Assembly: GCA_965214035.1 (NCBI GenBank)
Contig: OZ243932.1
Coordinates: 1,857,260 to 1,921,259, forward strand
Source of the DNA: Gammaproteobacteria bacterium
Lineage (GTDB): Bacteria > Pseudomonadota > Gammaproteobacteria > JAJDYQ01
Reading direction: 5' to 3'
Length of the DNA stretch: 64,000 nt
The position numbers and the translations under genes are program-made. Below the pieces are notes generated by a model. It saw only the letters and a list, made by a program, of their open reading frames with translations, did no database searches and was not told the DNA's origin. Shown piece after piece: positions 18,482 through 48,400 of the stretch (the first letter of the stretch is position 1; each line of letters opens with the position of its first letter).

Positions 18482-18482
18482 A

Positions 18483-31075: not shown

Positions 31076-31162
31076 GTATCGTGGTTATACTCCCATCTCG
31101 TTATTCCTTAATATCACAACAAGAATACTCATCATCCCTGCTAAAAAATAAAATTTCGATCC

Positions 31163-31549
31163 TCACTTTAAAACAATGTAATCAAACTGCATATCGATAT
31201 CGGGAAAATATCTTTGTAGCTTATTAATAACAAAATCGTGATCCTCGGGGTCTAGTAGAGAAGGGCAAAACGACACATCTTTATATTTACTACTCCAAAT
31301 GGACTGCGCCTTCTGTAAATTTTGGTCTAATGCCCTGGTGATTTCCAAACCGATTTGGCGCCGGTCATCAATTAAAATGTAATCTGGAGATTCTGATTTT
31401 TTTATTTCAATATTGTTTGTCTCAATATTCAAGTGCTGAGAGCAATTCTTAATAAACAGCTCTCTCAAATGTTCTTCAATTTTGTCTATTGCATAATAGT
31501 CCGCGCAATAAAAGCCTTTAATTCTATAGCCTGTAAGCTGATATGGCAT
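31163..31549 (-). CDS. hypothetical protein (terminal integron cassette ORF)
   Basis: 128 aa ORF between candidate attC sites; AT-rich. Confidence 0.4.
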   Translation of the reverse strand: MPYQLTGYRIKGFYCADYYAIDKIEEHLRELFIKNCSQHLNIETNNIEIKKSESPDYILIDDRRQIGLEITRALDQNLQKAQSIWSSKYKDVSFCPSLLDPEDHDFVINKLQRYFPDIDMQFDYIVLK

Positions 31550-31574
31550 TCACCACAACCATATTTCTTATTTT

Positions 31575-31680
31575 TATGCCTGCCTTTAGTCTCTTTTACG
31601 CTAACGAACTGCATAAGTAGCGTGGGCCTTGCCACATCCATGTCGAACGCACTGTCAGCGGAACCTTTGCGCAATACGCT
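31575..31680. other. candidate attC site (R-box-like GCGCAAC ... GTTAGCG with short terminal pairing)
   Basis: Box pattern only; internal pairing weak. Confidence 0.3.
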
Positions 31681-32645
31681 CAAACCAGTGTTGCGCTCTT
31701 GAAGGCTCCCATCGGTGCGATTGAATCGAGCGCTTGCAGAATCTCAAGGCTCAATGGCATATCAAGAGAGGTAAGATTTTCCTCGATACGAGAAATTTTG
31801 CGACTCCCTGGAATCGGAATAATATCTTCGCCCTGTGCAATTAACCATGCAAGAGCCAGTTGCGCTGGTGTCATGCCCAGCTCCGAAGCAATGTTTTTGA
31901 TGCCTTCGAGGCGCTCCAGATTGCTGCTGAAATTCTCACCCTGCATTTTGGGGTTGTGATTACGAAAGTCGTTAGCGCCAAGCTCCTTAATGGTGCCGGT
32001 TAGAAAGCCGGCACCGAGTGGCGACCAACACACAAGTACAGCTCCAATACTCCTGACAGCAGGTAAAATGTCGGCCTCAGCCTCACGGCGAAACAGTGAG
32101 TACTCATATTGAACTGCTGAAACAGGATGCACCCGATTTGCCTCAAGGATTTCATTTGCTTTCACATTAGAAAGACCGATTGCCTTCACCTTGCCCTCTC
32201 GGACCGCTTTCGCCATTGCCGAGACCGTCTCTTCAAACGGTGTTTCAGGGTCCAGGTAATGGGCGTAAAGCAGATCAATTCGTTCGATCCCAAGGCGTTT
32301 GAGACTATTGTCAATCGCACGCTTCACGTAATCCTTCCTGCCGTTTATTGTCAAGGGAAACCCCTAACCGGTGTCTAGTCGGCTCCCCGATTGACCTTCC
32401 TCGAATACGATTCCAAATTTGGTTGCAACAAAAGCACTTTTCCCTGCTTGCTTAATAGCCTGCCGGATCAGTTCCTCGTTGTGACCTGCACCATAGGCAT
32501 CGGCTGAATCGATCATCATATTTTGATCGATCACATGCACCAGAGTTTCTACAGCCACATGGTTATCACTCCGACCATAGTAATCCTCCAGCACCATTGC
32601 ACCATAACCGATTTGTTTCACTGGCTGTGAGTTGACACTGAACAT
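31680..32645 (-). pseudogene. aldo/keto reductase, frameshifted (integron cassette)
   Basis: N-terminal 93 aa (32364..32645) and C-terminal 224 aa (31680..32354) of one AKR in different frames; junction near 32355-32365. Confidence 0.75.
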
Positions 32646-32692
32646 GATGACTCCCTGTTATTGATAATCTCGATTTTCTCGACTCATGTTAA

Positions 32693-32766
32693 AACTAACG
32701 ACCAGACTCACCAGCAGCAATGGAGTTCAGCAGAGTTGCCGTCTGATGCAGTACCTTATTGTATGC
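32693..32766. other. attC-like cassette boundary repeat (family member X)
   Basis: About 75 percent identical to the repeat at 35582-35653; begins AACTAACGACCAG; lies between REase stop and AKR start. Confidence 0.5.
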
Positions 32767-32776
32767 TTTTTTTGTT

Positions 32777-33736
32777 TCACAGCTTGATTAACCAGTCGCA
32801 TAATGAAACAACTTGCTCTTCATTTGTTAAGTTTGCTCCATTTGAAAGAGTGCCATCATTTAATTGCTGATATATCTCTTTCGCCATAGCATTTTCAATC
32901 GCCGCACCAACAAAAAATGTTTCAGGCTTACAGCCTTCCACAGAAAATGCTGCTCTAATCCTATGCAGTGCCGAGTTTGCGGTTTTCCAGTGCTCGTCTG
33001 CTCCCGCAGGATCAATTTCACCCTTTAGTTCTCCCAAAGCAAGATATTTCTCTGGATTATAGTATGCTGAATCCTTATTTCCACCGAAAATAATTTCATC
33101 AGGCGAGCAGTCAAACAGACAAAGATCCACATTCTTTTCAACCGTTGTTACAGTTAAATTGTAAATCAGAGTGTGTTTCTTTTTATTAGTGACCCAGTGC
33201 AGGCCTTTAACCTGCTTCTCAATTTCAGGCTCAGAGCTGGAGGACACCCATTTCCTTTTATTTGAATCAAGGTATTCAAAACTTGTTCCGCTTATGGAAC
33301 AGGTGGACACGAAAATTCTTGCAAATCTCCATTCACCTAATGATCCAGCCAGATTTCTCATGCTGCCGCCCAATGAATCACCTCTGGTAAGCAAGAAACG
33401 ATAAACCAGCTCATCAATAAATGACTGACCAGAAGGTTCCAGAAAATTTTCGATTAAACCCTTTATTGCCTCTTGTTTATCCTCTTCTCGCAAATGGTTT
33501 TTCGCCTTGTCAGAAATCCCTGATGCTGTAAGTAATGAATTTTTGATTTCACGTACTTTTAACAAATCTTTTGGCATTTTTGCTTGTGACGCATAAATCT
33601 TGAGTGCCTTGGCTTCTTCAATAAACGGAGTTGCTTTCCTGTTCTTTTCTAATGCTAACGAAATAAACCCTGCCCGTGTTTCCTCATAAGGAGTTATCAG
33701 GCTTTTATATGATTTTAAGTGGCTGTTAAATGGCAT
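32777..33736 (-). CDS. putative type II restriction endonuclease (partner of adjacent methyltransferase)
   Basis: 319 aa; 4-bp spacing from the MTase gene, same strand; no recognisable family motif. Confidence 0.5.
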   Translation of the reverse strand: MPFNSHLKSYKSLITPYEETRAGFISLALEKNRKATPFIEEAKALKIYASQAKMPKDLLKVREIKNSLLTASGISDKAKNHLREEDKQEAIKGLIENFLEPSGQSFIDELVYRFLLTRGDSLGGSMRNLAGSLGEWRFARIFVSTCSISGTSFEYLDSNKRKWVSSSSEPEIEKQVKGLHWVTNKKKHTLIYNLTVTTVEKNVDLCLFDCSPDEIIFGGNKDSAYYNPEKYLALGELKGEIDPAGADEHWKTANSALHRIRAAFSVEGCKPETFFVGAAIENAMAKEIYQQLNDGTLSNGANLTNEEQVVSLCDWLIKL

Positions 33737-33739
33737 TTA

Positions 33740-35071
33740 TTACCCCTTTTTCCATACATACACACACTTCCTTAAAGAGGCCCGCCCATGCCTGCCCATT
33801 TGTTGAGAACTATTGCCTTTACCTTGAGGCAGGACAAGGATATTGACTACTTGAAAATCGATTGTTTCAGCTATTTTTGAAAGCATTGTATCCACAGATA
33901 TTGCTGCACCAGCATATCGAACATTGTCATTGACCATAAACATTAAGCCGCCACTGTTTAAAACTCGATAGCATTCCTGGATGATATAACCCATTTCATA
34001 GAAATAACCTCTGACCATACGAGCGATTCCACTATTATTAAGTTCTTTTTGGCCCTTCTTATAGTCTAAATAATTCAATATCTTCTGCAATAAAGGCAAA
34101 TTGTCACAAATGTCTATGGCTGTCTGCCAATTATGGTTAAAACAGATAAGCTCCTTTGATTTATTTTCTACCGTGCAACTTAACATTGCCTGTCGCAAGC
34201 CAAACAACTCATTTTCATTGATTCCCAGTATGGCATGTTCAAGCGCATAGGTGCGTGTATAGTCGTAACGATTACAGTAAGGAGGAGAGGTCATTATTCC
34301 TGAATAAGCACAATCTTTTAAGGTCGGCAGAATATCCAAACATGAACCTTTTGATAAATTAATTTCTCCGGCTCTTATATTCCTCCGCAAATCTGAGAAC
34401 AGATCCTCTTTGCCACTACCATGATCCATATCATTTTTTATTTCATTCAGCTTTTTTAGAATAGCCTCATCGAATGAAGAAATCCGTCTTTTATCAAAAG
34501 CGTTTTTACTATTCTTGCGCTCGGCTCTGTAATCCCATCGAAGATACTGCCCGTCTTTTCTTGTATAGCCAATGGACTCAAGCACACATAACAGAGCAAA
34601 TAGTAATATATCCTTTATTTTGAGGAGTTCATGTTCCAGTTCGTTTAGATATCGGCCTATTTTTTCATGTGTCTCTGAAGAATATGCTCCATCAGTGATG
34701 CGAAGTACTTCAAAATTTTTAATTTCGCCTTTAGTACTCCAGGGTTTCTGAAGCAGCCATTTTTCTAATCCATCAATAATATTTTGTTTATTCGCACCTC
34801 TGGCAAGGATATTTGCACTGATGATTTTTTGCCCAACGGGTAAGACCTCAATTCCCTCGGAGTCATAGCCCAATGAGGAAGATGCGAATAAGGCCGTACC
34901 TGCACCGGCGAAAGGATCAAGTATCTTACCGTGAATGACATGATATCTACAAAAAAGATATTCCACCAAATCTGCGGAAAAAGCCTCTTTATATTTATAC
35001 CACCTATAGTATGTGCGGGCTTTATTGGCCTGAAAACTAACCAGCTTTCTGGTCAGAGCATCATCAACCAC
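33740..35071 (-). CDS. DNA methyltransferase (N6-adenine or N4-cytosine, alpha-type motif order)
   Basis: 443 aa; motif I DPFAGAGT about 200 aa before motif IV SPPY. Confidence 0.8.
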   Translation of the reverse strand: MVDDALTRKLVSFQANKARTYYRWYKYKEAFSADLVEYLFCRYHVIHGKILDPFAGAGTALFASSSLGYDSEGIEVLPVGQKIISANILARGANKQNIIDGLEKWLLQKPWSTKGEIKNFEVLRITDGAYSSETHEKIGRYLNELEHELLKIKDILLFALLCVLESIGYTRKDGQYLRWDYRAERKNSKNAFDKRRISSFDEAILKKLNEIKNDMDHGSGKEDLFSDLRRNIRAGEINLSKGSCLDILPTLKDCAYSGIMTSPPYCNRYDYTRTYALEHAILGINENELFGLRQAMLSCTVENKSKELICFNHNWQTAIDICDNLPLLQKILNYLDYKKGQKELNNSGIARMVRGYFYEMGYIIQECYRVLNSGGLMFMVNDNVRYAGAAISVDTMLSKIAETIDFQVVNILVLPQGKGNSSQQMGRHGRASLRKCVYVWKKG

Positions 35072-35251
35072 AAAGGCATCAGAGAAATATTGAGTTAATA
35101 AACTGTCCAGCTCGTCTATTTCCCTTAAAAAATTTTCATCTCTTGAAACTTGGGCCTTATGATTTTTTTCTTCGATTAATTCGATTTGTATTTTGCAAAC
35201 ATCCCTTTCGAGTTAAGATTTATGTGCTCCGGCGCAGAGTTATTTGGCCTG

Positions 35252-35566
35252 TTATGTGCTGACACTAAACCAGAATTCAATTTCATCCGTTTCAACCTCA
35301 AACCGTGCGGCATGCTCTACATTGTCAGGTACGTGATACCATTGACCCACACCTATACGTTGAGTTTCATCATTCATTGTAAGTATCAGCTCGCCTTTTG
35401 TGATGACACCATGATTCTCTGTATCATGTGTATGAGGCGGGATTTCTGTTCCCGCTGGATAAGATGCAAAAAGCACATCACTATCTTTGGCTTCCAGTTT
35501 ATATGCGTCAAAACGACCATCATATAGCGGAAGTTGTTTTATTTTGTCAGGGTAATTTCCAGACAT
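35252..35566 (-). CDS. cupin domain protein (integron cassette)
   Basis: 104 aa; cupin motifs PPHTHDTENHGVITKG and WYHVPDNVEH; AAGGAG RBS. Confidence 0.75.
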   Translation of the reverse strand: MSGNYPDKIKQLPLYDGRFDAYKLEAKDSDVLFASYPAGTEIPPHTHDTENHGVITKGELILTMNDETQRIGVGQWYHVPDNVEHAARFEVETDEIEFWFSVST

Positions 35567-35581
35567 TCTTTTCTCCTTATG

Positions 35582-35653
35582 AAATAACGACCAGGCCCAC
35601 TAGCATCAATGGAGCACAGCGCAACTGCCGTCCGGTACAGCGCATTGTTAGAG
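35582..35653. other. attC-like cassette boundary repeat (family member Y; R boxes AAATAAC / GTTAGAG)
   Basis: Homologous to 32693-32766; cassette-strand R'' CTCTAAC exactly complements GTTAGAG formed with first bases of upstream cassette. Confidence 0.5.
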
Positions 35654-36126
35654 CTGACTCGATGACATACAGAATTTTAGCCCATGTTCTCCTCCGATAC
35701 GCCCAGAGAGTAAAACGAGTAATTCTCTGACAGGCTGCTGCATCAATCCAACGCCCCGTTTTGAATTCGATGGCGACCCGATGCCCTTTATTTCTCTATT
35801 CCCAAAGCCGATTGAATTTCGAGGCATCTCGTTTGTAGTTCGGATACCAATGCGGGACGAATTTGATTTCGATGACACTGAGGATAGTGCTGTCTTTGCA
35901 AAGGACAAGGTCAGACTTTAACTCGTAGCCTCCCCGTTGATTGAGGAGCAAACCTGATTCGACGAAGGGCTTAACGTCGGGCAGCTGATCACGTATGGCC
36001 CGGTATAGGCAGGCTTGCAGACATCGCTCAGAGTTTATGAAATCTATTGGTAATCTCCCTCCACTTTCTTCCAGGCCGTGTGCAGCTTTGAATAGTTCAT
36101 GGCATGGACCCCATAGCTCTAACTAT

Positions 36127-36182
36127 TAAACCCAGCGGCGGTGTAACCATCTTCTAGAGCTCCGGGTTATGTGCCAGGATTA
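36127..36182. other. short attC site (R boxes CTCTAAC / GTTATGT on + strand)
   Basis: Cassette-strand R'' ACATAAC exactly complements GTTATGT reconstituted with first 6 nt of its cassette; shares CGCCGCTGGG with attC at 37303-37401. Confidence 0.5.
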
Positions 36183-36783
36183 GCCTCGATCCAGGTGTAC
36201 CTGCGGCCATCCCTCAGTTCCTTCCATCGTATGACGTACTTGCCTTCAATCACTACCTCCTGATCCTTCGCTCCAGTTGGTTTTACGATCTTTCCATGCA
36301 ACGGTTCGCCACCTCGAAAGTACTTATAGATTCCGTTAGCACTTCCGGAATGGAAAGGACGCTGTTCAACGACCGCAAGGAAGAGGCAGCTTGAGAAGCC
36401 CGCCACCTTGAGCTCTTCCAAGAACGCGATGTCTTTGCAAAAACTGAACATCTGCTCCGAGCACTGACCTGCTCTCGGATACTTGAGCTCAACCGCCAAC
36501 CGTAGCTGATTCCGAGGCGTGTCAAAGCACGTAACATCAATCTCTCTTTTCACAAACGACGGGTGTGAAAACCGAAAATAGGACACATTCCTTTCGAACT
36601 GAACCAGCTTTGCCACATTTTTTCTCGAAGAAATATTCCGAATTCGTGCTGAAGACTGAATTCGTTGTAGATTTCGATATGGCCATCGTTCAGTCGCTGG
36701 GCGAACTCCCCGATCAGTGCTTCAGGCTTTACGGAGGCCGTCATCATGGTTGGGCGAGGCAGTGGTAGCACATAACGCTTCAT
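36167..36783 (-). pseudogene. hypothetical protein, frameshifted (integron cassette)
   Basis: Two adjacent minus-strand ORFs (36550..36783 and 36167..36616) overlap in different frames. Confidence 0.45.
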
Positions 36784-36834
36784 TCAGGTGCGCCGCAGGG
36801 TTCCGCAGGCATCACCTGGAATGACTTGTTATGC
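36770..36834. other. integron attC site
   Basis: ACATAAC-GC-TTCATTCAGGTG...CACCTGGAATGAC-TT-GTTATGC; imperfect palindrome with one extrahelical base, unpaired spacers, R''/R' boxes. Confidence 0.8.
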
Positions 36835-37281
36835 GTCTGGGACTTTTTGGGTGTAATGATCGAATGCTGTAATTTTTGTATAGCCTTCTGCCTCGTAGAG
36901 ACTTTTGGCTTTTAAGTTGTCAACTGCTGTTGCCAACTTAACTGTTGTGGCTTTTGTAGATTTTGCGTAGCTTTGAACATGCTGAAGTAATGATTTTGCT
37001 ATGCCCTGCTTTCTTGAATTTTCAGTTACGTACAGATCGTTGAGCAACCAAATACTTCTCATTGCCACTGAAGAAAATGAAGGATAAAGCTGTACGAACC
37101 CTAATGTTTCATTTGCTTCTGATTGAGCAAGAAAAATAACTGAGTCATTTTTAGTCAGTCTCTGCTCAATAAATTTGTGAGCTTTTTCTAAGTCAGACTC
37201 TTGCCCATTAAACTGACGATATAAATCGAAGAGATATGAAACGCTATTTATTTCTTCTTTTGTCGCTTCGATGATTTTCAT
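36829..37281 (-). CDS. GNAT family N-acetyltransferase (integron cassette)
   Basis: 150 aa; acetyl-CoA binding motif RKQGIAKSLL; flanked by attC sites. Confidence 0.85.
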   Translation of the reverse strand: MKIIEATKEEINSVSYLFDLYRQFNGQESDLEKAHKFIEQRLTKNDSVIFLAQSEANETLGFVQLYPSFSSVAMRSIWLLNDLYVTENSRKQGIAKSLLQHVQSYAKSTKATTVKLATAVDNLKAKSLYEAEGYTKITAFDHYTQKVPDA

Positions 37282-37302
37282 AGAACTTTCAATTTTCTTG
37301 AC

Positions 37303-37401
37303 GCATAACGCGGTGCTAAGCGGCGCCCAGCGGCGAAGCCGCGGTTTGGGCGTCCGGCGGAGGGCCGTAGGCCCGGAGCAAACTTGAGCACCTTGTTATG
37401 T
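37303..37401. other. integron attC site
   Basis: GCATAAC-GC-GGTGCT-AAGC...GCTTGAGCACC-TT-GTTATGT; GC-rich imperfect central palindrome; extrahelical base on minus-strand 5' arm. Confidence 0.85.
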
Positions 37402-37408
37402 GACGTAT

Positions 37409-38672
37409 TCAATCGATTGGCACCACGAGAATACCAAGCGTACCACAAAACAAACCCAAGATGTAGAGTGCCAACCACCAGCGAGAATTGAATTTCTCCC
37501 AAGAGTTCTTCCCTTTCCATGATTGAATCTCCCATCCTGCGCGACCGATCACTCCCCAAGCTACCATAAGAATAACTTTTCTTGATAGTACGAACTCTAG
37601 AATATTATTGTCTGGAGCCTTCATGAAAAATTTTGAAGTTGAGGATGATAGTTCATTTAGCTTAAGCGGCTTATCACTGTTGCTATTTAGAAGTATAGAC
37701 TTTCTTAAATCTAATCGAGTACTTATTAAACTACTGTGAGTTGCGATAATTATTTGATTTTGATGGGACTCTGATATTTTTGAAATAAGCCTTTTCATGT
37801 TGCTGTGGCTCAGATGATTTTCAGGTTCCTCTAAAAGGAGGGTATCTAACGTATTATTTTCAGCGTTACGATTCAGAGCGAATTCAGTTTTTATGAAGCA
37901 CTGCTGCCCTTGTCCTTTAGCATCTATCGGAATATCACCTTGAGTCAGAGTGATGTCAGCTTCCAGATTGTATTTTGACCCTGAGCGTATGGCCAGCTCG
38001 TAACTGCCTAATCCAGCATTAATATCTTTGAGTTTATTCTCTTTGAATTGTATTTTTTGTAACCGATATTCGTTGCTCAGGCTTACTCTATTTGCATGAT
38101 CTACAATGGAATCATAGACTGTTCTTATGTATTCGTTGTTTGCATGCTCGCTATTAATTTTTGAGCTATCTATTGTTAGACACCTAAGGAATCGGCGATA
38201 ACCGGAATATGTCTCACCATTAAAAGTAATGAATTTAACAATATAAAATTCAAATGGAAAATTTCCGTTATCTAATGCTAAGACCTGATTAATTTCATTG
38301 ATTAGCTCTTCATTAGGAATGACAAATCATATGCAGCCCGCTAGCATTGATATTTTTCGAATTGTGTTTTCCGTAAATATCGGGATTTGTTTCATCACTC
38401 AAATAAGCTTCGACATGAACTTCAGGTAAGTTCTCAAAAGTCTTTTCACCCGCTGAAAATTCAGTTATCGATCCCTTATTAAGAATGGACTCAATACCTG
38501 TAGTCTCAACTTTATGCCTGCTTCCGCTGGAAAGCAGTTCGATTGCTTGTAATATTGAGCTTTTGCCGGCTTCATTATCTCCAATGATAGTATTAATCTT
38601 CGAATCAAATTCGACTTCAAATTCTTTGAATCTTTTATAGTTAATGAGCTTTAGTTGTTTTATGTGTTGCAT
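37409..38672 (-). pseudogene. AAA/ABC-type ATPase (AAA_21 / OLD-like ATPase domain), frameshifted
   Basis: Walker A GDNEAGKSS (38672..38313), then one open frame to 37409 carrying Walker B LLLEEPENHL and H-loop QIIIATHS; single frameshift near 38313-38330. Confidence 0.7.
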
Positions 38673-38730
38673 GCTTTCCTTTTCCAGTTCTGTGGAAATG
38701 CTAGTAGATTAAGTTGAGCGTATAACGTCG

Positions 38731-38815
38731 GAATAACCTGCAGCTCACAGCGCATTTTGGAGATGTGAAAATACCAACACATTGGAAAAGTGCGCTGTGA
38801 GCTGTCAGGTTAATT
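38731..38815. other. integron attC site
   Basis: GAATAAC-CTGCAGCTCACAGCGCA...TGCGCTGTGAGCTGTCAGG-TTAATT; 18-bp stem with one extrahelical A. Confidence 0.8.
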
Positions 38816-38839
38816 CCCTGGTTAGGCAGCGCCCCTACG

Positions 38840-39651
38840 CTATAGATGCAATCTTCCATCAAACACAATCACTGCTTCTCCACGAATCATTAACTGGTCC
38901 CCAGCCAACTCTAAGCTCATTGAGCCTGTGCGTTTCGACGATTGGAAGGACTCTAGTTTGGTCCTCCCTAGACGGATAGACCAGTACTTAGCAAGGAAGG
39001 TGTGAGTGCCCCCAGTTACAGGGTCTTCTTCAGTGCCACTCCAAGGCCAGAAATATCGGGAATGGAAATCGAATCCGTCTGCGCTAGAGCGCGCAGTAAC
39101 TAATACGCCATTGATCGAATCATGGGACGCTAGGAGCGCCGCGAAATCAGGGCTGAGGCTCGCGAGTAGTTTCGTGTCGTCGATTTCAAGGAGAAGGATG
39201 CGTGTCTCTTCATTGTAAACCGCATTGCTGACACTATCGATTCCCAACGCTGCGAGTAATGGCCCTGGCACGTCGCATGGGTGCGTATCGTAAACAGGAA
39301 ACTCCATTTCAATCTTATTCGCGCGTTTAGTCGCGACCAGACGGAGCCCTTGAGTATTAACGAATGTTGTTTCCTCTACTCCGAATTCAGTAAACACGAT
39401 TTTCGCGCGATGCCAAGGTGGCATGGCCGCATAGCGGAATTTCCATTTTCGGAGAGAAGTACCGAATTGAGTACTCGCCCGTGCCGTTCAGTTCTGTAAT
39501 GAAGGCGGTTTCCGAAAGCATTTTGCTGCGTACCGTGTATCTCAGAAGTCCCAGAAGTTGATTTACGATGTCTAGGAAACCACCAGGCAAAAAATGCCAC
39601 TACTACTCCAAGAGCTGCAATTATCAATCCCGCAACTTCGATACTCATCAC
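38840..39651 (-). pseudogene. PhzF-family (phenazine biosynthesis-like) protein, frameshifted (first cassette)
   Basis: PhzF motifs split over three frames (LSETAFITE...LCGHATLAS in 39590..39387; PVTGGTHTFLAKYW in 39424..38840). Confidence 0.7.
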
Positions 39652-39654
39652 TTA

Positions 39655-39820
39655 GCCGCTAACTATTAATAGACATCCTAATCTATCACAAAATGCGGAT
39701 AAATGATACGGCTTTTCGCTATAATTATTTTAGCATTAAAATATATTGATACTATTGATTTAATGACGCTTTTTGTTTTATCAAATATTTGATGTTGCCT
39801 GAATTCTGGAAAACAAGAAA
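39655..39820. promoter_or_regulatory. candidate attI / Pint-Pc region upstream of intI remnant
   Basis: AT-rich 165 bp between first cassette and intI start; junction motif CTAACTATTAA (39659-39669). Confidence 0.35.
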
Positions 39821-40190
39821 ATGAAATCTCCCTTTTTGAACCTGACTCAAGAGCGCTTACGGCGATTGAACTACTCTCTCAGAACCGAAGAAAACTATTT
39901 AAGCTGGATTAAGCGCTATATCCTGTTTCATGGCAAACGCCATCCCACTGAGCTGGGCAAGACAAAAATGGAAGTATTTTTAACGAATCTGGCCGTTCAG
40001 AGAAAAGTGTCTGCTTCAATGCAAAGTCGGCATTGATATTTATGTATAAGCAAGTGCTGGATATGAAATCACCTTGGGTTGATGGCATGGTGCGAACCAA
40101 ACAGAAAAATAAAACCCGGTGATGTTCTCCCACCATGCTCAGATAGTGCGAGTTGTCCAATTTGATTATCTTGTAGGGCGCACCAGATAC
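39821..40190 (+). pseudogene. intI: integron integrase IntI, N-terminal fragment with frameshifts
   Basis: RLRRLNYSLRTEENYLSWIKRYILFHGKRHP...VFLTNLAVQRKVSAS aligns with IntI1 residues about 20-80; continuation (ALIFMYKQVLDMKSPW; PVMFSHHAQIVR) in other frames. Confidence 0.75.
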
Positions 40191-40561
40191 CAACTGACTA
40201 AAACCAGACCGCCAAAACCCGTATATAACACCATGAAAACCCATTCTGGAGCGTTGTAGTAAAGTAAGCTTTGCAACCAATGCTGTATAAACGAACCTGA
40301 ATATGTTTCTAACTGAGCTTCTTCCCTCAGGGCCATTTCCCAAATGGTTAAAGGACAAATGGCCCCAACCCATGATTGGATAACCACTATGGTAATAGCG
40401 ACCAGATGAGTTATTCGAAAAGCCCGATTTCTTATCCAGCACCATTTGAGGGCATATCCAAGATAAATTGCAACAAGCCCGAACACTACAAAAAAAACAA
40501 ATAGTACATGTATAATTAAAATGGCATCAGCCAGAAATATTAACAGCAATTCTTTCGGCAT
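40166..40561 (-). CDS. DUF2784-like small membrane protein
   Basis: 131 aa, 4 TM helices; 3' end overlaps intI N-fragment convergently. Confidence 0.5.
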   Translation of the reverse strand: MPKELLLIFLADAILIIHVLFVFFVVFGLVAIYLGYALKWCWIRNRAFRITHLVAITIVVIQSWVGAICPLTIWEMALREEAQLETYSGSFIQHWLQSLLYYNAPEWVFMVLYTGFGGLVLVSWYLVRPTR

Positions 40562-40753: not shown

Positions 40754-40846
40754 ACATAACGATTGCGGCAACCGGCGCAGCCCACTGTCTGTCCCGCATA
40801 GCGTCAACCCTCGTTTCCCGGCGTCAGGCTCATTGCGTTGTTAGGG
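40754..40846. other. attC-like repeat (R boxes ACATAAC / GTTAGGG) downstream of GmrSD operon
   Basis: Same box pattern and partial homology (CTAACAA.GC, AGTGGGC) to repeats at 32693 and 35582; no strong internal palindrome. Confidence 0.4.
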
Positions 40847-41284
40847 CGCACGGCCCGAGTGCAGTATTTTCCATTGGAGATAACTTTTCAGTTGTGACGC
40901 CAACTTCTCGGGAAAACACTCCAGAATCTCAATCCACGACAACTGCTTGATGATGACATTAGTCTCAAGTTGCCAGTCCTCATCCCCGAAGACATTGGCC
41001 GAGCGACCAGCACCCAGTACGATAAAGTTGTTCACCCTCGGCATGGCCCGTCGCGCTTGAGTCTCACAATACCTTACTCGAAGATCTAGCTGGCTACGAT
41101 TTCCGGCGACACCCTGACCTGTGTTTAGCTTCGAGTTCCACTTCGCCTCGCCGAGAAGAAGCGTGGTGTCTGAACGAAGCGCGAAGTCGATCTCTGGCCC
41201 GCCACTTGACTCAGGCTTCTCAGGGTGAGGAAGTCTGCGCCAAAGCCAACAAACTGGGGCATCGGTAACTGTTGCTACGCCCAC
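40841..41284 (-). CDS. PD-(D/E)xK nuclease core (C-terminal half of split HsdR-N-like nuclease)
   Basis: 147 aa; IDFALRSD...LLGEAKW matches D-(x)n-E-x-K; in frame with upstream ORF, separated by a single TAA. Confidence 0.5.
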   Translation of the reverse strand: MGVATVTDAPVCWLWRRLPHPEKPESSGGPEIDFALRSDTTLLLGEAKWNSKLNTGQGVAGNRSQLDLRVRYCETQARRAMPRVNNFIVLGAGRSANVFGDEDWQLETNVIIKQLSWIEILECFPEKLASQLKSYLQWKILHSGRAP

Positions 41285-41806
41285 TTATTCGAGGATGCGA
41301 TTAAAGACGCTTAGCCGTGTGCTGGCGGGCGCATAGGCAAGACTCCCAAATACGCTCCATGTCACAGCGTCCTCGCTGTTCAGAGACTGTAGGTCCGTGT
41401 AGTGGCCCAATCCCGACGTTGCGGCCTCGGAGTCTTTCCCGGTACAACCCTCGAATTTGCTGCTCGCGTAGTATTTCTGGAGAAGCTCTGGCGTAGGCCA
41501 AGGAGAACATGTTCTGACCATGCTGTCGTCCGGGTGTGTAGTGACCAGCACACCGCCTCTGCTTTCAGCTAGAGAGATAGTCCTATCTTCGAGCCAAGGG
41601 TTGATGACATTGAGCCGCTCGCGCAGCACCGGCAGCATCACGACCTCGGTGAGGCTCTCCCGATGGGTGTCAGCCGGGGTCTGCTTCATACCCATCAGGT
41701 CGATGATCTCCCAACCCAAGCTCGCAAGCTGGTCGAGCAGCGGCTTCTCGACGTGGTTGCGCTCGTCAAGCTTAATCTGCTTCGGCGTTTTGCCTGGGGA
41801 GATCAT
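41285..41806 (-). CDS. HsdR-N-terminal-like domain protein (N-terminal half of split nuclease)
   Basis: 173 aa; EKPLLDQLASLGWEII...ESLTEVVMLPVLRERLNVINPWL resembles type I HsdR N-terminal helix. Confidence 0.5.
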   Translation of the reverse strand: MISPGKTPKQIKLDERNHVEKPLLDQLASLGWEIIDLMGMKQTPADTHRESLTEVVMLPVLRERLNVINPWLEDRTISLAESRGGVLVTTHPDDSMVRTCSPWPTPELLQKYYASSKFEGCTGKDSEAATSGLGHYTDLQSLNSEDAVTWSVFGSLAYAPASTRLSVFNRILE

Positions 41807-43920
41807 TCTGAAGCTTCTCCATTGGGCTTTTCGCCGTCGACTGTTCCAATAAACAGTAGTTTCTCCCGTGCCTTGTCATCGGCGAAATGAATGTTCCAAC
41901 GCTTCTCCATGAATTTCAGCAACTGAATGCCTCGCTCGCGAATTTCATCGGGGCCCCAATCCTTGTAATTAGAGACTTCGATTTCAGAGTGCGAACCATC
42001 TGCATAGCCGTTGCGGATCTTGCTGCCATCGCGATTGTACTTGGGCTTTTTCTTTTCAGCGAAGGCGTTGTTCTGTAGCGAAGAGTTGATCGCGGAAGAG
42101 AGGAGCAAAAGGTTCCCGAGGCTATTGCGGTACGCCTCCCGCTCTCGTTCGCGAATACCTTTGAAAGCTGGCTTCCAAGCCGCCGTCTCGGACTGCGGGC
42201 AAATGTGCTCGATGGATATCTTGTCCTTCGGCGACTTGAGCAAATCTGCCCAGTCAACCTTCTTGTCGCGACTCTTGGACAGCAACCCCAACTCGTACTC
42301 GTAGAGGAAATACCGCAAGCCGGGCCAGTCGTAGTAGCCCTGACCGTTCTCGAATTTCTTCTGAAGCAACAGATAGAAGTCATCATTCGCAAAATGGCCC
42401 TCATCCGTGAAAGTAAAGCTCATCCGGTCACGCAGTCGCTCCTTCAGTTCCGCCAAATCCATGTCGCCACGGTCGATCGCGCGTACCGCGTTGCTGAACT
42501 CCGAGCTGCGATAATTCGAACGGGTTTGGGTCAGCCGGAACACGACGAAGATAAACCGTTCGATCTCCTTGAATGTACCGATACGCTGAACGCGATCATT
42601 GCATTTCTTCAGAATCGCCATCAGCAACGGGCGAAAGTACGCCATGCCCAGCCGATTCAGACGTTGAATCCATTCAATTTCTTCCCGGGTCAAATCGCCG
42701 GACATTTCGGGGTAAAACGTGCAGAACCAGTGAACCGAAGACGCCTTGAGGCTCTTGACGTAGTCGCGAATCTCTTTCGGCCGCAACTCAGCGGCCATCA
42801 TCGGGTCGCTGCTTTCCACCTCGTCCAGTCCGTTCTCGTCGTCCGCTTCCAGGTCCGCGTCAGATGTCTGCTCCTCGGCTTCCTCCAGTTCAACCAGTTG
42901 AACGATCTTGCGATGAACGCGCTGCGGTGTGAACTGCTCCTCCAGCAGAAACTTGATGTAATCTCGCCCCGTCTGCCGAGAGTACTTGAAATACATCATC
43001 CAGTGGCCCCGCAGAAAGTCGTCGTCGTTCAGCGGCTTCGACTTGTTACGCCCCAACTGGAAGTAAACCTCCTTCCAAGCTTTGTTGATTAAGTCACGGA
43101 GATCGCTGCGCTCCGCGGGGTCCAGTTCCGCATCGGTATAGAGGGTCGTCAGGTAGATCAAACGATTCTTGAGCAATTCCAGATCTGAAAGCGTCTTGCC
43201 GCGGTTGTTCATCGTCTCGAAGGCGACGAAAACGTCGAACTCATCCTTGATGATGTACTCGTTAAACAGGAACCGTTTGGTCAGCATGCGGTACATACCT
43301 TGAAGCCCTGAGAGTCCTTCTTTTTCGTGCCAAGCTCGTAGTTGCTCTTTGAAGTAGTGTTTCCCATTGCTGAGATTGAGCGTATAGAACGTCTCGAACA
43401 CCGTGCCACCGCCCTCTTCGCCCAGAATTCGGTACCGCATGTACTGGTCACTGGGGTTGTCAACCGTGTAGCCGAACTTGTACGTCCGAAAGGCTTCCCC
43501 GGCCGGTTTCACCTCGAACAGAAACTTTCTTTCGACGGCCGCGATGCTGAGCGTATCGGTCAGGCAGATCGCGTCATCCACCTGACCCTTGTTTTCAGGC
43601 AAGCTGCGAAGCAACTCGATGAAGGCTTGCAGAAACAGCGTGAACGTCGTCAGCCGCTGCTGACCGTCGACGATGTGGTACACCTTGTACGAATGGTCAT
43701 CAACCAGCCAAAATTCCTTGTCATCCTGCTGAATGTCGGCGGATGGAATCTCCTTCAGAGTCAGCACACCGGTATAGTGGGAGCGACCGTCGGGCAGGTT
43801 GATGAGATCCTCCCAGAAGGCGTCCAGCTGCTCGCGTCCCCAGGCGTAACCACGCTGGTAGTCGGGAATTCGGAACAGCCTCTCCTTGAAGAGGCTATCG
43901 AGTGGTTTGGGTTCGTCCAT
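41803..43920 (-). CDS. GmrSD-like DUF262 (ParB/Srx-like NTPase) + DUF1524 (His-Me finger nuclease) protein
   Basis: 705 aa; DGQQR motif (IVDGQQRLTTF) N-terminal; HIEHICPQS...N HNH-like motif C-terminal; GC-rich by eye. Confidence 0.8.
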   Translation of the reverse strand: MDEPKPLDSLFKERLFRIPDYQRGYAWGREQLDAFWEDLINLPDGRSHYTGVLTLKEIPSADIQQDDKEFWLVDDHSYKVYHIVDGQQRLTTFTLFLQAFIELLRSLPENKGQVDDAICLTDTLSIAAVERKFLFEVKPAGEAFRTYKFGYTVDNPSDQYMRYRILGEEGGGTVFETFYTLNLSNGKHYFKEQLRAWHEKEGLSGLQGMYRMLTKRFLFNEYIIKDEFDVFVAFETMNNRGKTLSDLELLKNRLIYLTTLYTDAELDPAERSDLRDLINKAWKEVYFQLGRNKSKPLNDDDFLRGHWMMYFKYSRQTGRDYIKFLLEEQFTPQRVHRKIVQLVELEEAEEQTSDADLEADDENGLDEVESSDPMMAAELRPKEIRDYVKSLKASSVHWFCTFYPEMSGDLTREEIEWIQRLNRLGMAYFRPLLMAILKKCNDRVQRIGTFKEIERFIFVVFRLTQTRSNYRSSEFSNAVRAIDRGDMDLAELKERLRDRMSFTFTDEGHFANDDFYLLLQKKFENGQGYYDWPGLRYFLYEYELGLLSKSRDKKVDWADLLKSPKDKISIEHICPQSETAAWKPAFKGIREREREAYRNSLGNLLLLSSAINSSLQNNAFAEKKKPKYNRDGSKIRNGYADGSHSEIEVSNYKDWGPDEIRERGIQLLKFMEKRWNIHFADDKAREKLLFIGTVDGEKPNGEASE

Positions 43921-43986
43921 CGCGATACTCGTTGATTAATTATGGGAATTATATGGGAATTATATACTTGACTCCCTAGTGTCTCG

Positions 43987-44649
43987 TCATATTTCTTGTG
44001 TTGGATATAGTCGTTTTAGTTTGATGCGCGCGTCTTCAGTTGTGAACTGCCAATCCACCTGAGTCTGCAGGCGGTCCCGTGAGGCTTGCCAGGCAGCGAC
44101 CTCACGTGCGAGTATGTCCATACGGTCGATACGCCGATTCAGGCATTGGCGGTTCATGACATTGAGTTCGATTTCAGCCACATTCAGCCAACTACCGTGC
44201 TTTGGGGTGTACACGAACTCGAATCGGTCCCATAGTGCTTTGGCTTGTGCCGGTGGGTAGGCTTCATAGAATGCACCGGGGCGGTGGGTATTGAGATTGT
44301 CCATGACCAAGGTGATGCGGGTGGCATCCCGATAGCGTGCGGCGATGTCGGAGAGGAACTGCGCCCAATCGGTTCGGGTTCTACGTTCGGTTACTTGGGT
44401 CATCCGCTTGCCAGCCAAAGGTTCGGTGGCCATGAAGACATTACAGGTTCCACAACGCTGGTATTCGTAGTCGTATCGGGCTGGCTGTCCTGGACTCATG
44501 GCAACCGGCGTACGAGTCTCCCGAATCAGTTGGCGCGGTGTCTCGTCCATGCATACTACCGGGAAAGCGGCATCGTAGGGACGCCGGTAAACATCCAGCA
44601 CCTTTTCCATCGCGGCGACGAACTCGGCGTTGCCTTGTGGCGGAATCAC
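43987..44649 (-). CDS. IS630-family transposase, DDE catalytic part (orfB)
   Basis: 220 aa; DDE motifs (VVCMDE, VMDNLNTH, SWLNVAE). Confidence 0.85.
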   Translation of the reverse strand: MIPPQGNAEFVAAMEKVLDVYRRPYDAAFPVVCMDETPRQLIRETRTPVAMSPGQPARYDYEYQRCGTCNVFMATEPLAGKRMTQVTERRTRTDWAQFLSDIAARYRDATRITLVMDNLNTHRPGAFYEAYPPAQAKALWDRFEFVYTPKHGSWLNVAEIELNVMNRQCLNRRIDRMDILAREVAAWQASRDRLQTQVDWQFTTEDARIKLKRLYPTQEI

Positions 44650-45122
44650 CCATCCGACCCGCGGCCATGGTTTGAGTTCGTTTTTTTTAGAACCCGTCGC
44701 ACGGTTTCATGGGACACCGAATCAATGTAACCCAGTTCCACAACCCGGTCGGCCAAGAGCCGCAACGACCATTGCGCGTAACCCGCCGGAGCTTCATCAC
44801 AGGCCAAAGCCACCAGACGCGCCTCGAATTCGCCGTCGGCCTTACGAATATAGGTGAGCCTGCGCCCTTGGCGGCCTCCTAGCGCCGCATCCAGACCTTC
44901 CTCCACAAACCGCTTCTTCACTCGATCCACCTTGCGCATGCTGATGCGTAGTATGTCCGAGATGGCTTCCCCAGTGGAATGCCGATCATTGAAAACACCT
45001 TCATCGCAGTTGAGCAGGATCAACGCATTAATCACCTTTTGGGACCGATGCGAACCCTTGTTCGTGATACCTGTCAATTCATCTCGCTCCGCTTCGTCCA
45101 ACGTCACCCTATAGCGTTTCAT
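44646..45122 (-). CDS. IS630-family transposase, N-terminal HTH part (orfA), joined to orfB by frameshift
   Basis: 158 aa; HTH domains; A8 slippery run (coding strand) at 44684-44691 at the orfA/orfB overlap. Confidence 0.8.
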   Translation of the reverse strand: MKRYRVTLDEAERDELTGITNKGSHRSQKVINALILLNCDEGVFNDRHSTGEAISDILRISMRKVDRVKKRFVEEGLDAALGGRQGRRLTYIRKADGEFEARLVALACDEAPAGYAQWSLRLLADRVVELGYIDSVSHETVRRVLKKTNSNHGRGSDG

Positions 45123-45206
45123 ACATTCAACCTCGTCTTAAACAGAAAACAAGGAATCTATCATATTATATGCGACATATCATGTATGACGAGACACTAG
45201 TCTCCA

Positions 45207-46068
45207 TTAATTAAAGCACGAAGATTGGTTGCCAAGTGGTTTAAATCGAAGATGTAAATGCTTGCGGCCAGCATGATGCCAGACACCGTACAGCCCTCGG
45301 CGCAACAGTGCCCAGACGCTTTCGATGCTGTTCGTATGGATATCGTTCGCACCGACATACTCCCCGGCACTGTGCTTGACGTGTCCATGCTCGTATCCGG
45401 CCAGTCCTTGATAGGCGGTCGCTTCCTCCGTGTAGACCGATGATCCCTTCTTGACGTGTTGCTTGATGGTGCCCTGTAGCGTCTCCTTCTTGGTATCCCC
45501 TACTGGCATCGCCACGGTGCGTCCAGTCGCCCGTTCTCGCAACCCTACGACCGCTTGCTTACCGACCGCTCCCCGACCTTCATGTAACTTTTTCCATTCG
45601 TGTTTGTTCTTTTCCTTACCGCCGATATAAACCTCATCGACTTCGACTTCACCGGACAGCATCCCGCCATCACTGCCATCACCACAGGCCTCACGGATAC
45701 GCACCTGCATAAACCAAGCGGTCTTTTGTGTCACTCCAATCTGCTTTGATAATTGCAGACTGGATATCCCCTTGCGTTCCGTGACCGTCATGTAGATCGC
45801 GTAAATCCACTTGTGTAGGGGAACGGATGACCGCTCAAAGATCGTTCCGGTACGCACCGTAAATTCCTCGTTGCAGTCTTTGCATCGGTAGTACCCCAAC
45901 CGCTTTCCCTACCTGGCGTAGATGTTGCCAAAGCAACCGCAATGAGCACAAACGGGCGTACCTTTCCAGCGCTGTTGCTCAATGTAGCATCTGGCTGATT
46001 CAGCATTGGGAAACTGCTCAAACAGTTCGACCAGGGAAATTGTGATATTATCTTTCATTGTGCTTTCC
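45207..46068 (-). pseudogene. IS1595-family transposase with in-frame TAG
   Basis: N-terminal zinc ribbon MKDNITIS...CAHCGCFGNIYAR then in-frame TAG (about 45900) then GKRLGYYRCKDCNEEF...DDE region to 45207. Confidence 0.7.
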
Positions 46069-46129
46069 TATTGACATGACCCATTTTATAACGCAACAGC
46101 TAGGGAGTCAAGTATATAATTCCCAAAAG

Positions 46130-46520
46130 TTATTGGTTATGCGCAAAGCAGAGTTTGAAGAGGATTTGGCCGCCGGGTTAGTGGGGTTTTTATGCCCGAT
46201 GCTTTGATGCGCAAATATCCAGATGCACAACGTGAGTGGATTTGGCAATATGTTTTTTCCTCGCCAAAATTATCACAAGACCCAAGAACAGGAATAGTCA
46301 GGCGCCATCATATTTATGAGCAATCTATTGGACGAGCGATTAAACAGACAGCACGTGATGGACAAATAGCAAAAAGAGTGAGTGCTCACACCTTCAGGCA
46401 TTCGTTTGCCACGCATCTGCTTGAGGCAGGCTATGACATTCGTACCATTCAAGATTTATTGGGGCATAAACATGTAGAAACCACAATGATTTATACCCAT
46501 GTGCTCAAATCGGGGGGACA
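46130..46520 (+). pseudogene. intI: integron integrase IntI, C-terminal fragment (5'-truncated at IS1595 end)
   Basis: [25 protein letters not shown]...[16 protein letters not shown]...[45 protein letters not shown] matches IntI C-terminus including IntI-specific insert and catalytic Y; frameshift near 46180; no stop. Confidence 0.8.
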
Positions 46521-46596
46521 GGGGGGCAGTCGCCTTTGGATGTATTGTAATACTATCCTGACAAGCGAGGCTTTATTAAAATCCTGTCACTATCTT

Positions 46597-47307
46597 TCAG
46601 CGCACCACAACCACCGAGTCAGAAAGCAACGGCTGTATGATTTCAAGTACATCTTCTTTGGTGACCTCAGTGCGGAAAGTTTTGATGATCCTCTGATTCC
46701 GGTCAATGACAACGGTGTAGGGCAGGGTTGTCAGTTGGTTGCCATACTCCTGCATGATGGTCAGCCCTTCCAGTTCAGCAAGCAGGATCGGGTATTCCAC
46801 GCCGATTTCGTCAACAAAATCCTGTACGGGTTCGGCCTGATCAATGGCTACTCCGATAATCTCAAACGGCTCGCCTTCGAGTTGTTCGCGCAGCTCAATA
46901 AAATCCGGCATTTCCTTGCGGCACGGAGGGCACCAGATTGCCCAGAAGTTGAGCAGGATAATGTTGCCGTCCCATTCGCTCAGGCTGCGTCTGTCGCCTT
47001 CAAGACTGTTTAAGCTGAAATCGGGTCTGATTTCAGGTATGCCAACCTGCCGCTCTGTCTGTATCGGGGTGCTTTTATCGCCTTGCAGCCATTGTGCAGC
47101 CAGCACTCCCGCGACCATGGATATCAGGGCAACAGTACCATAGAGCAGTGCCGTCTTGTATGACGCTTTCATGAAGATAGTGACCCGCCACAACCGCGTC
47201 AGAGCTTCATCCAAAAGCATCGGTGTGTACTGTTTTATAGTTGAGGTGGCACTGTGACAGCATGTATCATTATGTACCTGTGCCCAAAATCCCCAAGACA
47301 GCCTCAA
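46597..47307 (-). CDS. TlpA/ResA-like thiol:disulfide oxidoreductase, membrane anchored
   Basis: 236 aa; N-terminal [13 protein letters not shown] thioredoxin motif. Confidence 0.75.
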
Positions 47308-47492
47308 GAACTTTTCTGACAGGAACCGATTTGCGAACAGTTCTTGTGGGAGGGCAAATAGTGCTTAATACGATCCCGGCTTTCACCTGTCAGCTTATTT
47401 ATGCAAGCAACGATACACTACTCTGAAAATAATTTGATTTTCAGATAGGTTCAATCAGATGTCAGGGCGATTACCGCACCTGACGGCGGCAA

Positions 47493-48281: not shown

Positions 48282-48400
48282 ATCTATACGAGATATCTAG
48301 CGATCAAACTCAGCCGGATGCGGAAAATTGGGAGTGATAGAGAAAAAATTTTTCCCCGAATAATCAGTTACGTGATTCACCATATATCTAACACCTCTGT

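Follow-up and report, generated by a model that had tools for sequence, protein, structure and literature searches.

The 64,000-nucleotide stretch of a gammaproteobacterial genome analyzed here (contig OZ243932.1, positions 1,857,260 to 1,921,259; hereafter the window) carries, at about 31.1-52.2 kb, an island that very probably represents what erosion has left of a chromosomal integron. It lies between a MidA-like methyltransferase gene and nadE, and displays defining hallmarks of an integron: an integron integrase gene (intI), now broken into two pieces; an attI site next to it; a group of attC sites, all on one strand; and cassettes whose ends bear the signature of a circular intermediate. 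In functional terms, it corresponds to a cluster of attC sites lacking an integron integrase (CALIN) beside an intI pseudogene, there being at least two attC sites while the 64 kb hold no intact intI. A first-pass annotation of this DNA had proposed a decayed chromosomal integron array with defense-type cargo beside an intI remnant, and this proposal is upheld by the assignment of intI to TIGR02249, the attI site, attC matches to an independently trained model, a cassette that recurs in other genomes and a locus shared with relatives. Its extent, in contrast, has to be redrawn: the array had been placed at 31.1-39.8 kb, bounded by an intI remnant at 39821, but a second intI piece lies at 46126-46550 and further cassettes reach up to about 49.3 kb, and the integron-derived island runs from the MidA-like gene to nadE.

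The split integrase, attI and the attC sites

Both intI fragments find their best family in TIGR02249. The N-terminal piece has one frameshift and two stops. The C-terminal piece, frameshifted at both ends, includes the IntI-specific insert (DALxRKYP...RRHH) and aligns in tblastn with residues 208-322 of IntI1 at 46180-46524 with 60% identity, while XerC/XerD score only about 88 bits on it. Judged against P0011, approximately 62 residues from the middle of the protein have been lost, a catalytic Arg among them. By these sequence criteria, the gene is a genuine integron integrase that now appears to be a pseudogene; further, tblastn with IntI1 found no intact intI in the window, where these two pieces are the sole intI sequences. 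They are separated by about 6 kb holding a DUF2784 gene, a GmrSD-containing block and two nested insertion sequence (IS) elements, the outer one of which, of the IS1595 family, adjoins the C-terminal piece. The 3' end of the DUF2784 gene is joined to the intI fragment, and the gene keeps only an R''-like GCCCTAC; in the relative L001, an attC-like element is retained after this gene. Two routes to the split may be envisaged. Cassettes and IS elements might have inserted into intI; alternatively, a module of attI plus the 5' part of intI might have been tandemly duplicated, as observed in the more distant relative L052, with an IS-associated deletion following. We also considered a site-specific hotspot in intI at the codons L-S-N (antisense GTTGGAC, a perfect GTTRRRY), at which a number of intI fragments looked to terminate, and rejected it, as the actual junctions are found at distances of 4-30 nt and vary from copy to copy; the ending in LSN followed by a stop seen in P0001 and P0002 exists because a 1-nt deletion creates TGA.

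IntI inserts circular, mostly promoterless cassettes at attI, the folded attC bottom strand taking part in the exchange at G|TT. Because insertion occurs at attI, new cassettes stack next to it in one orientation, here the minus strand. The cassettes of this island would have entered in the same way, by IntI-catalyzed G|TT exchange at attI. The G|TT crossover, which reads AA|C on the plus strand, falls at 39661-39663, and intI starts 158 nt downstream of the junction ...TATTAATAG|TTAGCG. The sequence around this junction (...YYTAAC|TAYTAATAGAC...) can be aligned to four attI copies in L052 and to those in L067 and the strain-level relative L071, with a different first cassette, beginning TTRRRY, at each of them. 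The copy in L001 has an 8-nt deletion at the junction, and the 34-nt attI motif occurs only once in the window. We accordingly recognize here a predicted attI beside intI with a G|TTRRRY cassette junction.

For the attC sites, we used a covariance model (R1) built from 12 attC sites of class-1 integrons, taken from plasmids located via IntI1 (cassettes arr-3, aac(6')-Ib4, aac(6')-IIc, dfrA14, aadA2, lnu(F), dfrB1, estX, psp, cmlA1, aadA1 and qacL). Since all the training sites come from plasmid class-1 integrons, R1 is independent of the window; its structure (R''/R' and L''/L' pairing with one bulge) pairs 79% of the cells, as against 18-53% with the partners slid. With filters off, R1 was applied to both strands of the entire 64 kb. 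Its six best matches (E <= 0.11) fall within 32.7-48.4 kb, every one of them on the minus strand. A second model (R2), trained on attC sites of the lineage, adds only marginal sites, at 49204-49258, 40754-40846, 47478-47538 and 36117-36172. Thus, there are six solid and about four marginal attC sites, 56-108 nt in length. Neither model has a match with E < 1 outside 32.7-49.3 kb on either strand of the window. As nothing scores outside the island, the alternative that these elements belong to a repetitive extragenic palindrome (REP) or miniature inverted-repeat transposable element (MITE) family is disposed of within the window. A strict RYYYAAC...GTTRRRY scan was abandoned in favor of a relaxed scan and then the covariance models, having missed all three of the sites first listed, the R'' boxes of which take forms such as GCATAAC and ACATAAC; an Rfam scan of the window matched only a tRNA, and Rfam holds no attC family.

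The three attC sites reported by the first-pass annotation are real. The covariance search that it had proposed as a check recovers each of them (E 1e-6 to 0.11), and DNA folding of the plus strand, which is the bottom strand here, returns for each a hairpin with paired R boxes, unpaired spacers and bulged bases. The bulges lie on the 3' arm of the plus strand, i.e., the minus-strand 5' or L'' arm, which is the same arm as in class-1 sites; taken together with the strand of the R1 matches, this bears out the arm and the uniform minus-strand orientation given earlier. In matters of detail, a single bulged base per site holds for the first two sites, but the third has two, and the boxes of the third lie at 38720-38827 rather than at 38731-38815. 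The weaker attC-like repeats claimed down to about 31.1 kb are supported in part: boxes, though without a fold, are present at 35582-35653 and 32693-32764 (which are about 70% identical by eye), but the element at 36117-36172 scores at noise level, and below 32.7 kb neither R1 nor R2 detects any attC.

A further line of evidence comes from the cassette ends. For three consecutive cassettes (GNAT, 36123-36775 and 35588-36122), the R' box recreated by circularizing the cassette agrees with its own R'' box at 4/4 variable positions, as against only 3, 1 and 1 matches, respectively, with the R' box found in situ; the circularization signature noted in the first pass for three cassettes thus stands. 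For the last of these, the R'' CTCTAAC of the site at 35582-35653 is fully complementary to TTAGAG, with which the cassette begins. The cupin cassette passes as well, with its start TTATTT and its own R'' AAATAAC at 35239-35245, and the start TTAGAT of the cassette coding for an NYN protein agrees with its own R'' at 3/4 positions.

For the cassette 36123-36775, the boundaries are also anchored by homologues elsewhere. Its frameshift-corrected 192-aa product, a PD-(D/E)xK-fold protein of an unnamed family, has 1378 homologues, of which intact ones are 82-89% identical. In a Chloroflexi metagenome-assembled genome (MAG; L062/L063), the homologous open reading frame (ORF) is followed by an attC of 44.2 bits, and attC sites lie on either side of the homologue in L064-L066. 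All the homologous cassettes retain both the start G|TTATGTGCTAC and the R'' ACATAAC, which fix the cassette boundaries in the window. These cassettes elsewhere keep a full attC, whereas that of the window copy is eroded. In the other genomes examined, neighbors of the homologues include TIR, MmeI and DUF4365 genes.

Cassette cargo, decay and flanking genes

To the left of attI are nine cassette units, coding for a PhzF-like protein, a GajA-like ATPase, a GNAT acetyltransferase, the PD-(D/E)xK protein, a decayed ORF, a cupin, a BsoBI-type restriction-modification (RM) system, an aldo/keto reductase (AKR) and a small ORF (Table 1). They stand out as a run of minus-strand ORFs at 31-40 kb with a GC content of 0.38-0.48, against about 0.52 in the flanks. 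The cargo named in the first-pass annotation (PhzF, ATPase, GNAT, cupin, RM and AKR) is borne out by Pfam and PADLOC, as is its count of at least four frameshifted genes, which we confirm for the PhzF-like gene, the GajA-like ATPase, the 192-aa gene and the AKR. The cassette that it took to be without an ORF, in contrast, holds a decayed one with a stop and frameshifts (35588-36122), the conceptual product of which has no Pfam match.

Table 1. Coordinates, strand and supporting evidence for features of the integron-derived island (positions are those of the window)
Feature	Position	Strand	Evidence
Distal cassette-like unit, 128-aa ORF (31163-31549), unknown function	31076-31604	-	ORF list
AKR cassette, frameshifted	31605-32698	-	PF00248; ORFs 31680-32354, 32364-32645
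Degenerate attC 3' of RM cassette, boxes kept, no hairpin	32693-32764	-	R1 20.6 bits, E 0.012; fold z +1.16
Type II RM cassette	32777-35191	-	BsoBI-family restriction endonuclease 32777-33736, PF09194 477 bits; methyltransferase 33740-35191
Cupin cassette, ORF 35252-35566 intact	35239-35587	-	PF07883
Degenerate attC, boxes kept, no hairpin	35582-35653	-	R1 26.1 bits, E 6e-4; fold z +0.95
Cassette with decayed ORF (early stop and frame changes)	35588-36122	-	sequence reading; circularization 4/4
Eroded attC of PD-(D/E)xK cassette	36117-36172	-	R2 12.3 bits (noise level); fold z -0.4
PD-(D/E)xK-fold cassette, 192-aa product, unnamed family, frameshifted	36123-36775	-	A-run: A6 here, A7 in L071
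attC of GNAT cassette, canonical	36770-36834	-	R1 37.3 bits, E 1e-6; hairpin z -4.8, one bulged G on bottom strand
GNAT acetyltransferase ORF, intact (cassette 36776-37308)	36829-37281	-	PF00583
attC of ATPase cassette	37303-37401	-	R1 16.6 bits, E 0.11; hairpin -31.3 kcal/mol, z -4.0, one bulged G
GajA/OLD-like ABC ATPase pseudogene, one frameshift (cassette 37309-38725)	37409-38672	-	PF13175 and related families
attC of PhzF cassette	38720-38827	-	R1 20.6 bits, E 0.012; hairpin z -9.1, two bulged bases (T, A)
PhzF-like pseudogene, first cassette at attI	38828-39662	-	PF02567 profile positions 106-281 on ORF 38840-39424
Putative attI and intI-cassette intergenic region	39663-39820	.	alignment with attI copies of relatives
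intI pseudogene, N-terminal part, ~aa 1-124	39821-40167	+	PF13495 2.5e-17; TIGR02249 87 bits, model positions 2-98; tblastn with IntI1 and P0001
DUF2784 gene	40166-40561	-	PF10861
Weak attC-like element after ORF 40841-41284	40754-40846	-	R1 9.9 bits, R2 14.6 bits (E 0.48); no hairpin, z +1.3; positional support only
Three-gene block: 147-aa ORF, 173-aa ORF, 705-aa GmrSD-family type IV restriction enzyme (predicted)	40841-43920	-	PF03235, PF07510
IS1595-family element, perfect 26/26 terminal inverted repeats	43954-46125	.	inverted repeats; PF12762, PF13358 and helix-turn-helix (with its nested element)
IS630-family element nested in IS1595, imperfect 34-nt inverted repeats	43976-45200	.	inverted repeats
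intI pseudogene, C-terminal part, ~aa 185-320	46126-46550	+	TIGR02249 206 bits, model positions 180-315; tblastn with IntI1
Redoxin/TlpA-like gene, convergent with intI	46597-47307	-	PF08534
Weak attC-like element, NYN gene	47478-47538	-	R1 12.7 bits, R2 13.3 bits (both noise level)
NYN + OST-HTH gene (47493-48281) with weak attC	47478-48281	-	PF01936, PF12872
attC of BrnTA cassette	48386-48446	-	R1 22.4 bits, E 0.004
BrnA/BrnT toxin-antitoxin cassette	48386-48992	-	ORFs 48401-48721, 48711-48992; PF12441, PF04365 just below gathering cut-offs
Truncated attC remnant	49204-49258	-	R2 17.7 bits, E 0.08; fold z -2.3
IS256-family transposase	49455-50663	+	PF00872
HaeIII-like restriction endonuclease pseudogene (frameshifted) and D12-class methyltransferase fragment	50557-51949	-	PF09556 over two ORFs; PF02086 profile positions 153-253 only

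The defense-type genes among these cassettes show several forms of decay. The merged product of the ATPase pseudogene matches positions 2-381 of the 532 of the PADLOC GajA profile (249 bits), but neither a TOPRIM domain nor a GajB partner was found with it; lacking both, and interrupted by one frameshift, it does not constitute a Gabija system. In the RM cassette, PADLOC recognizes both the restriction endonuclease (REase_II, 416 bits) and the methyltransferase (MTase_II, 518-526 bits), and to this extent the type II RM system described in the first pass as complete is present; however, the methyltransferase has lost its start codon, which reads ATA at 35189-35191 (M1I), and the full-length, open endonuclease ORF thus stands beside a start-less partner. 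In L071, the codon is ATG and the methyltransferase has 483 aa, a simple ATG-to-ATA change that rules out truncation of the 5' end at the cassette junction, which we had considered. Relative to positions 3794-6208 of L071 (the strains being about 98.7% identical), the endonuclease gene shows 14 nonsynonymous as against 3 synonymous codon differences and the methyltransferase gene 12 as against 8, counts that indicate relaxed constraint. With an intact pair of the two genes wanting, a functional type II RM system is predicted to be absent.

Decay is equally visible in the remaining units. The PhzF-like gene has at least two frame changes and is missing its N-terminus by three-frame translation. 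The two parts of the PF00248 profile in the AKR (positions 81-289 and 2-72) fall on separate ORFs; the region of this frameshift is common to L071, and an R'-like GTTAGCG is found at 31599-31605. Of the attC of the cupin cassette, everything apart from the R'' AAATAAC is missing. The distal unit, the 128-aa ORF of which (31163-31549) has no Pfam or PADLOC match, adjoins the MidA-like core gene, which ends at 31075; its left part, up to 31241, is common to L001/L069.

In the interval between the intI pieces, the three-gene block has a higher GC content (0.53-0.55), and its 173-aa ORF shows a sub-threshold match to HSDR_N. The 705-aa ORF is open, with PADLOC matches to HEC-06, Orf5 and SspE-like, and combines DUF262 (GmrSD_N) and DUF1524 (GmrSD_C) in one intact frame, as predicted of a GmrSD enzyme. 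With the exception of this ORF, the defense-type cargo of the island is probably mostly non-functional. To the right of the C-terminal intI piece, the 5' region of the redoxin gene is homologous to a cassette start in L052 (by blastn, 47214-47452 corresponds to L052 9255-9506, beside an attC at 9515-9586), and a further blastn match pairs 47006-47124 with L052 16200-16317.

The core genes flanking the island are htpG, tsaD, plsY, a short-chain dehydrogenase/reductase gene and MidA on the left, and nadE (52218-53852), sucDC, pilSR and pilins on the right. Among the latter, downstream of pilS/pilR, 59558-61775 codes for three tandem type IV pilins (140, 179 and 158 aa), which suggests pilin paralogue variation. 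Apart from the island, the window has another low-GC (0.38-0.43) segment at 13054-17055 with two divergent paralogous genes coding for Wzy_C (O-antigen ligase-like) proteins with TPRs (673 and 630 aa), which may be a separate glycosylation or surface-variation islet.

Related loci and the history of the array

The comparison with relatives covers only a handful of genomes. Among them, L071 is a strain-level variant (98.5-99.6% identity) that shares cassettes, attI and the dead intI; its junction between the intI fragment and the DUF2784 gene matches that of the window over 998 nt with 15 differences and no gaps. However, its attI G|TT is joined directly to the PD-(D/E)xK cassette, the PhzF, ATPase and GNAT cassettes (36776-39662) being exactly absent. 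It retains an intact 201-aa PD-(D/E)xK gene (A7 in place of the A6 of the window), while blastn and the junction sequence show that its AKR gene is disrupted by a second IS256 copy. Another relative, the MAG L001/L069, has 94% nucleotide identity over 11 kb of core flank and the same MidA and DUF2784 boundaries. Its locus is much reduced: a fragment of the small-ORF unit, a fragment of the AKR unit and the cupin cassette, common to L071 as well, are joined to attI, the cupin cassette being the first; the endpoints of these deletions are not at attC boundaries. Hence, the arrays are nested, the first cassette at attI being the cupin in L001, PD-(D/E)xK in L071 and PhzF in the window, which might reflect the order of cassette acquisition or loss. 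The element thus seems to occupy the same chromosomal locus across the clade, which, along with the nested arrays, supports its being sedentary.

More distant genomes share intI and attI at about 72% identity (L052, L067 and L068). In L052, where these sequences lie on a 2.57-Mb contig with at least 12 attC sites, the array at 9800-20369 includes at least four modules made up of attI and the first 120-130 codons of intI, the copies being 72-95% identical, with a different first cassette at the G|TT of each; the one tested passes circularization. A further, attI-only copy is at 14249. Copies a and c of these intI N-terminal parts differ at 7 synonymous and 6 nonsynonymous codons, which is too few to decide on selection; we treat the fragments as pseudogenes because the other copies and that of the window carry frameshifts or stops. 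In L068 (4660-5260), attC sites lie on both sides of an intI fragment. In L061 (2.74-Mb contig), 9971-10708 codes for an N-terminally truncated intI (residues ~86-330, a 235-aa ORF) 3 kb upstream of the MidA orthologue, which is directly followed by bacA; with no attC sites detectable in it, this platform has lost its array. The neighborhoods in both L052 and L061 differ from the locus in the window. Finally, the 2,513,604-nt contig to which the window belongs has, outside the window, a second defective intI C-terminal fragment (P0010), truncated, frameshifted and with 80% identity to its counterpart here, together with a PD-(D/E)xK cassette-gene paralogue (P0240); these point to a second integron remnant, which is probably present elsewhere in this genome.

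Competing explanations and comparison with known integrons

Several observations count against a reading of the island as an eroding chromosomal integron. Convincing folds were obtained at three attC sites only, two well-scoring sites having no hairpin and four further candidates being at or near noise level; the sites are few, with heterogeneous arms (mean pairwise identity of 0.51 over the stretches of R box, unpaired central spacer and L box). R1 and R2 found no attC bounding either the AKR or the small-ORF unit, and none at 49.3-52.2 kb, which may be ordinary island debris. A crude scan of the attI region (39560-39900) found no sigma-70 consensus of a Pc-type promoter, though Pc is located inside intI in many integrons. 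Lastly, the cassette difference from L071 falls exactly at G|TT and postdates the disruption of intI, making for a poor fit to an array that is simply dead and drifting. The first-pass inference of an inactive integrase and neutral decay therefore has to be qualified: the frameshifts and the codon differences in the RM genes are in line with it, but a difference of exactly three cassettes despite a dead intI makes recombination in trans after inactivation a possibility.

In view of this last observation, the array might not be inert: another integron integrase, encoded elsewhere in the genome or on a transient mobile element, might continue to act on it in trans, with cassettes being gained or excised at attI. 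P0010 attests a second intI-derived ORF in the same genome, and the several attI copies of L052 with their different first cassettes, one of them validated by circularization, are compatible with such activity. Against this, P0010 is itself truncated and frameshifted, the window has no intact intI, and two of the three extra cassettes are pseudogenes, as would fit an old array with a deletion in L071; such a deletion could also stem from a 4-nt GTTA microhomology or from homologous exchange between strains. Servicing in trans hence strikes us as possible but less than likely. Only tentatively would we go further and propose a platform (attI and the first 120-150 codons of intI) that is reiterated in the array, offering several attI docking sites with a different captured cassette at each, and that is still remodeled by an integrase supplied in trans. 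If this speculation were true, the element would be a multi-attI, trans-serviced integron rather than a fossil.

We consider it improbable that the island is a recently acquired fragment of a mobile integron or CALIN, brought in by horizontal transfer or secondary-site insertion. The short array of attC sites heterogeneous in both length and arms, the abundance of IS elements, the GC content departing from the flanks, the different position of the L061 intI remnant relative to MidA and the different flanks of the L052 array could all be accommodated by a recent arrival. Yet a relative with no more than 94% identity in core DNA has the flanks (MidA and DUF2784) in common with the window, as well as the cassettes for the cupin, the AKR and the small ORF; nested arrays occur in three lineages, intI and attI recur in L052, L067 and L068, and tni or Tn402-like genes and plasmid genes are not present. 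The notion of a generic defense island without integron ancestry, in which the palindromes would be a genome-wide REP/MITE repeat or chance hairpins, can draw upon the weaker repeats that are unfolded or at noise and upon the attC-free 49.3-52.2 kb; it is effectively refuted by the lack of matches outside the island on either strand with a model trained on unrelated class-1 sites, the complete strand bias, the adjacent intI and attI, the circularization results and the conservation of homologous cassette boundaries in other phyla. We thus favor a long-resident chromosomal integron with a dead local integrase, the array of which is eroding through frameshifts, start-codon loss, loss of attC hairpins, deletions that are not site-specific and IS insertions.

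Such a history has precedents. In the Xanthomonas chromosomal integrons (Gillings et al. 2005, as cited in 10.1101/2025.06.18.660453), intI was inactivated in particular lineages by frameshifts, stops or large deletions. The likeness extends to an ancestral, chromosomally fixed element with a dead intI, short to medium arrays of mostly unknown genes, IS elements and arrays differing among relatives. The two differ in host lineage, in locus (MidA-nadE here, downstream of ilvD there) and in the splitting of intI here by about 6 kb of cassette-like genes and nested IS elements, with cassettes on both sides. Among CALINs, intI pseudogenes were reported within 10 kb of 15/279 and neighboring IS elements at 38%, and IS-mediated disruption was proposed as one origin of such clusters (Cury et al. 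2016; PMC4889954). Our locus resembles a CALIN beside an intI pseudogene in its attC sites, its want of a functional intI and its neighboring IS elements; unlike in CALINs, the survival of attI and both halves of intI makes the ancestry explicit rather than inferred.

Sedentary Vibrio-type integrons have been described as anti-phage 'biobanks' (10.1101/2024.07.02.601686), and defense cassettes are also known from mobile integrons (10.1101/2024.07.02.601719). The island shares with both a defense-type cargo (RM, a streamlined GajA/OLD-type ATPase, a GmrSD-type enzyme and toxin-antitoxin genes). In contrast to the Vibrio type, it has 6-10 attC sites instead of dozens to hundreds, heterogeneous rather than species-specific repeats, a dead integrase and defense genes most of which are pseudogenes. 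Since its attC sites are few and heterogeneous, it departs from two common expectations for a sedentary chromosomal integron, namely an array of more than 19 attC sites and similarity among them. Class-1 attC sites have the same R''-spacer-L'' architecture and a bulged base in the same arm (the GNAT attC starts with GCATAACAAGTCATTCCAGG, that of the psp cassette with CGCTAACAAGTCATTCAAGCC); unlike them, the sites here have unrelated variable loops and are accompanied by neither resistance genes nor a Tn402 context. As for the reiterated modules, two reports provide precedents: delta-attI-type cassettes of mobile integrons, with partial attI copies inside arrays, for platform sequence reiterated within an array (PMC12901181), and attG, where cassettes insert outside att sites, for IntI insertion at non-canonical sites, which could include intI (10.1101/2022.09.11.507474). 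Unlike in these, the L052 repeat is larger (attI and about 120-130 intI codons) and has at least four copies.

In itself, the locus, though well supported, is an ordinary case of a known type, the presence of defense cargo in integrons being already established. It nevertheless offers a clear and securely anchored example of how an integron erodes, from an environmental gammaproteobacterium that is poorly sampled and has a small genome (2.5 Mb): three related arrays allow the cassettes to be ordered by age, and the loss of attC hairpins, the loss of a start codon and the relaxed constraint on the RM genes are each directly visible against the sister strain. Of greater value than the locus itself may be two by-products: the widespread family of PD-(D/E)xK cassettes of about 192 aa and the repeated attI-intI modules in the relatives. 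More generally, the island supports the recent view of defense genes residing in integron cassettes, but suggests that such cargo becomes mostly junk once the platform dies.

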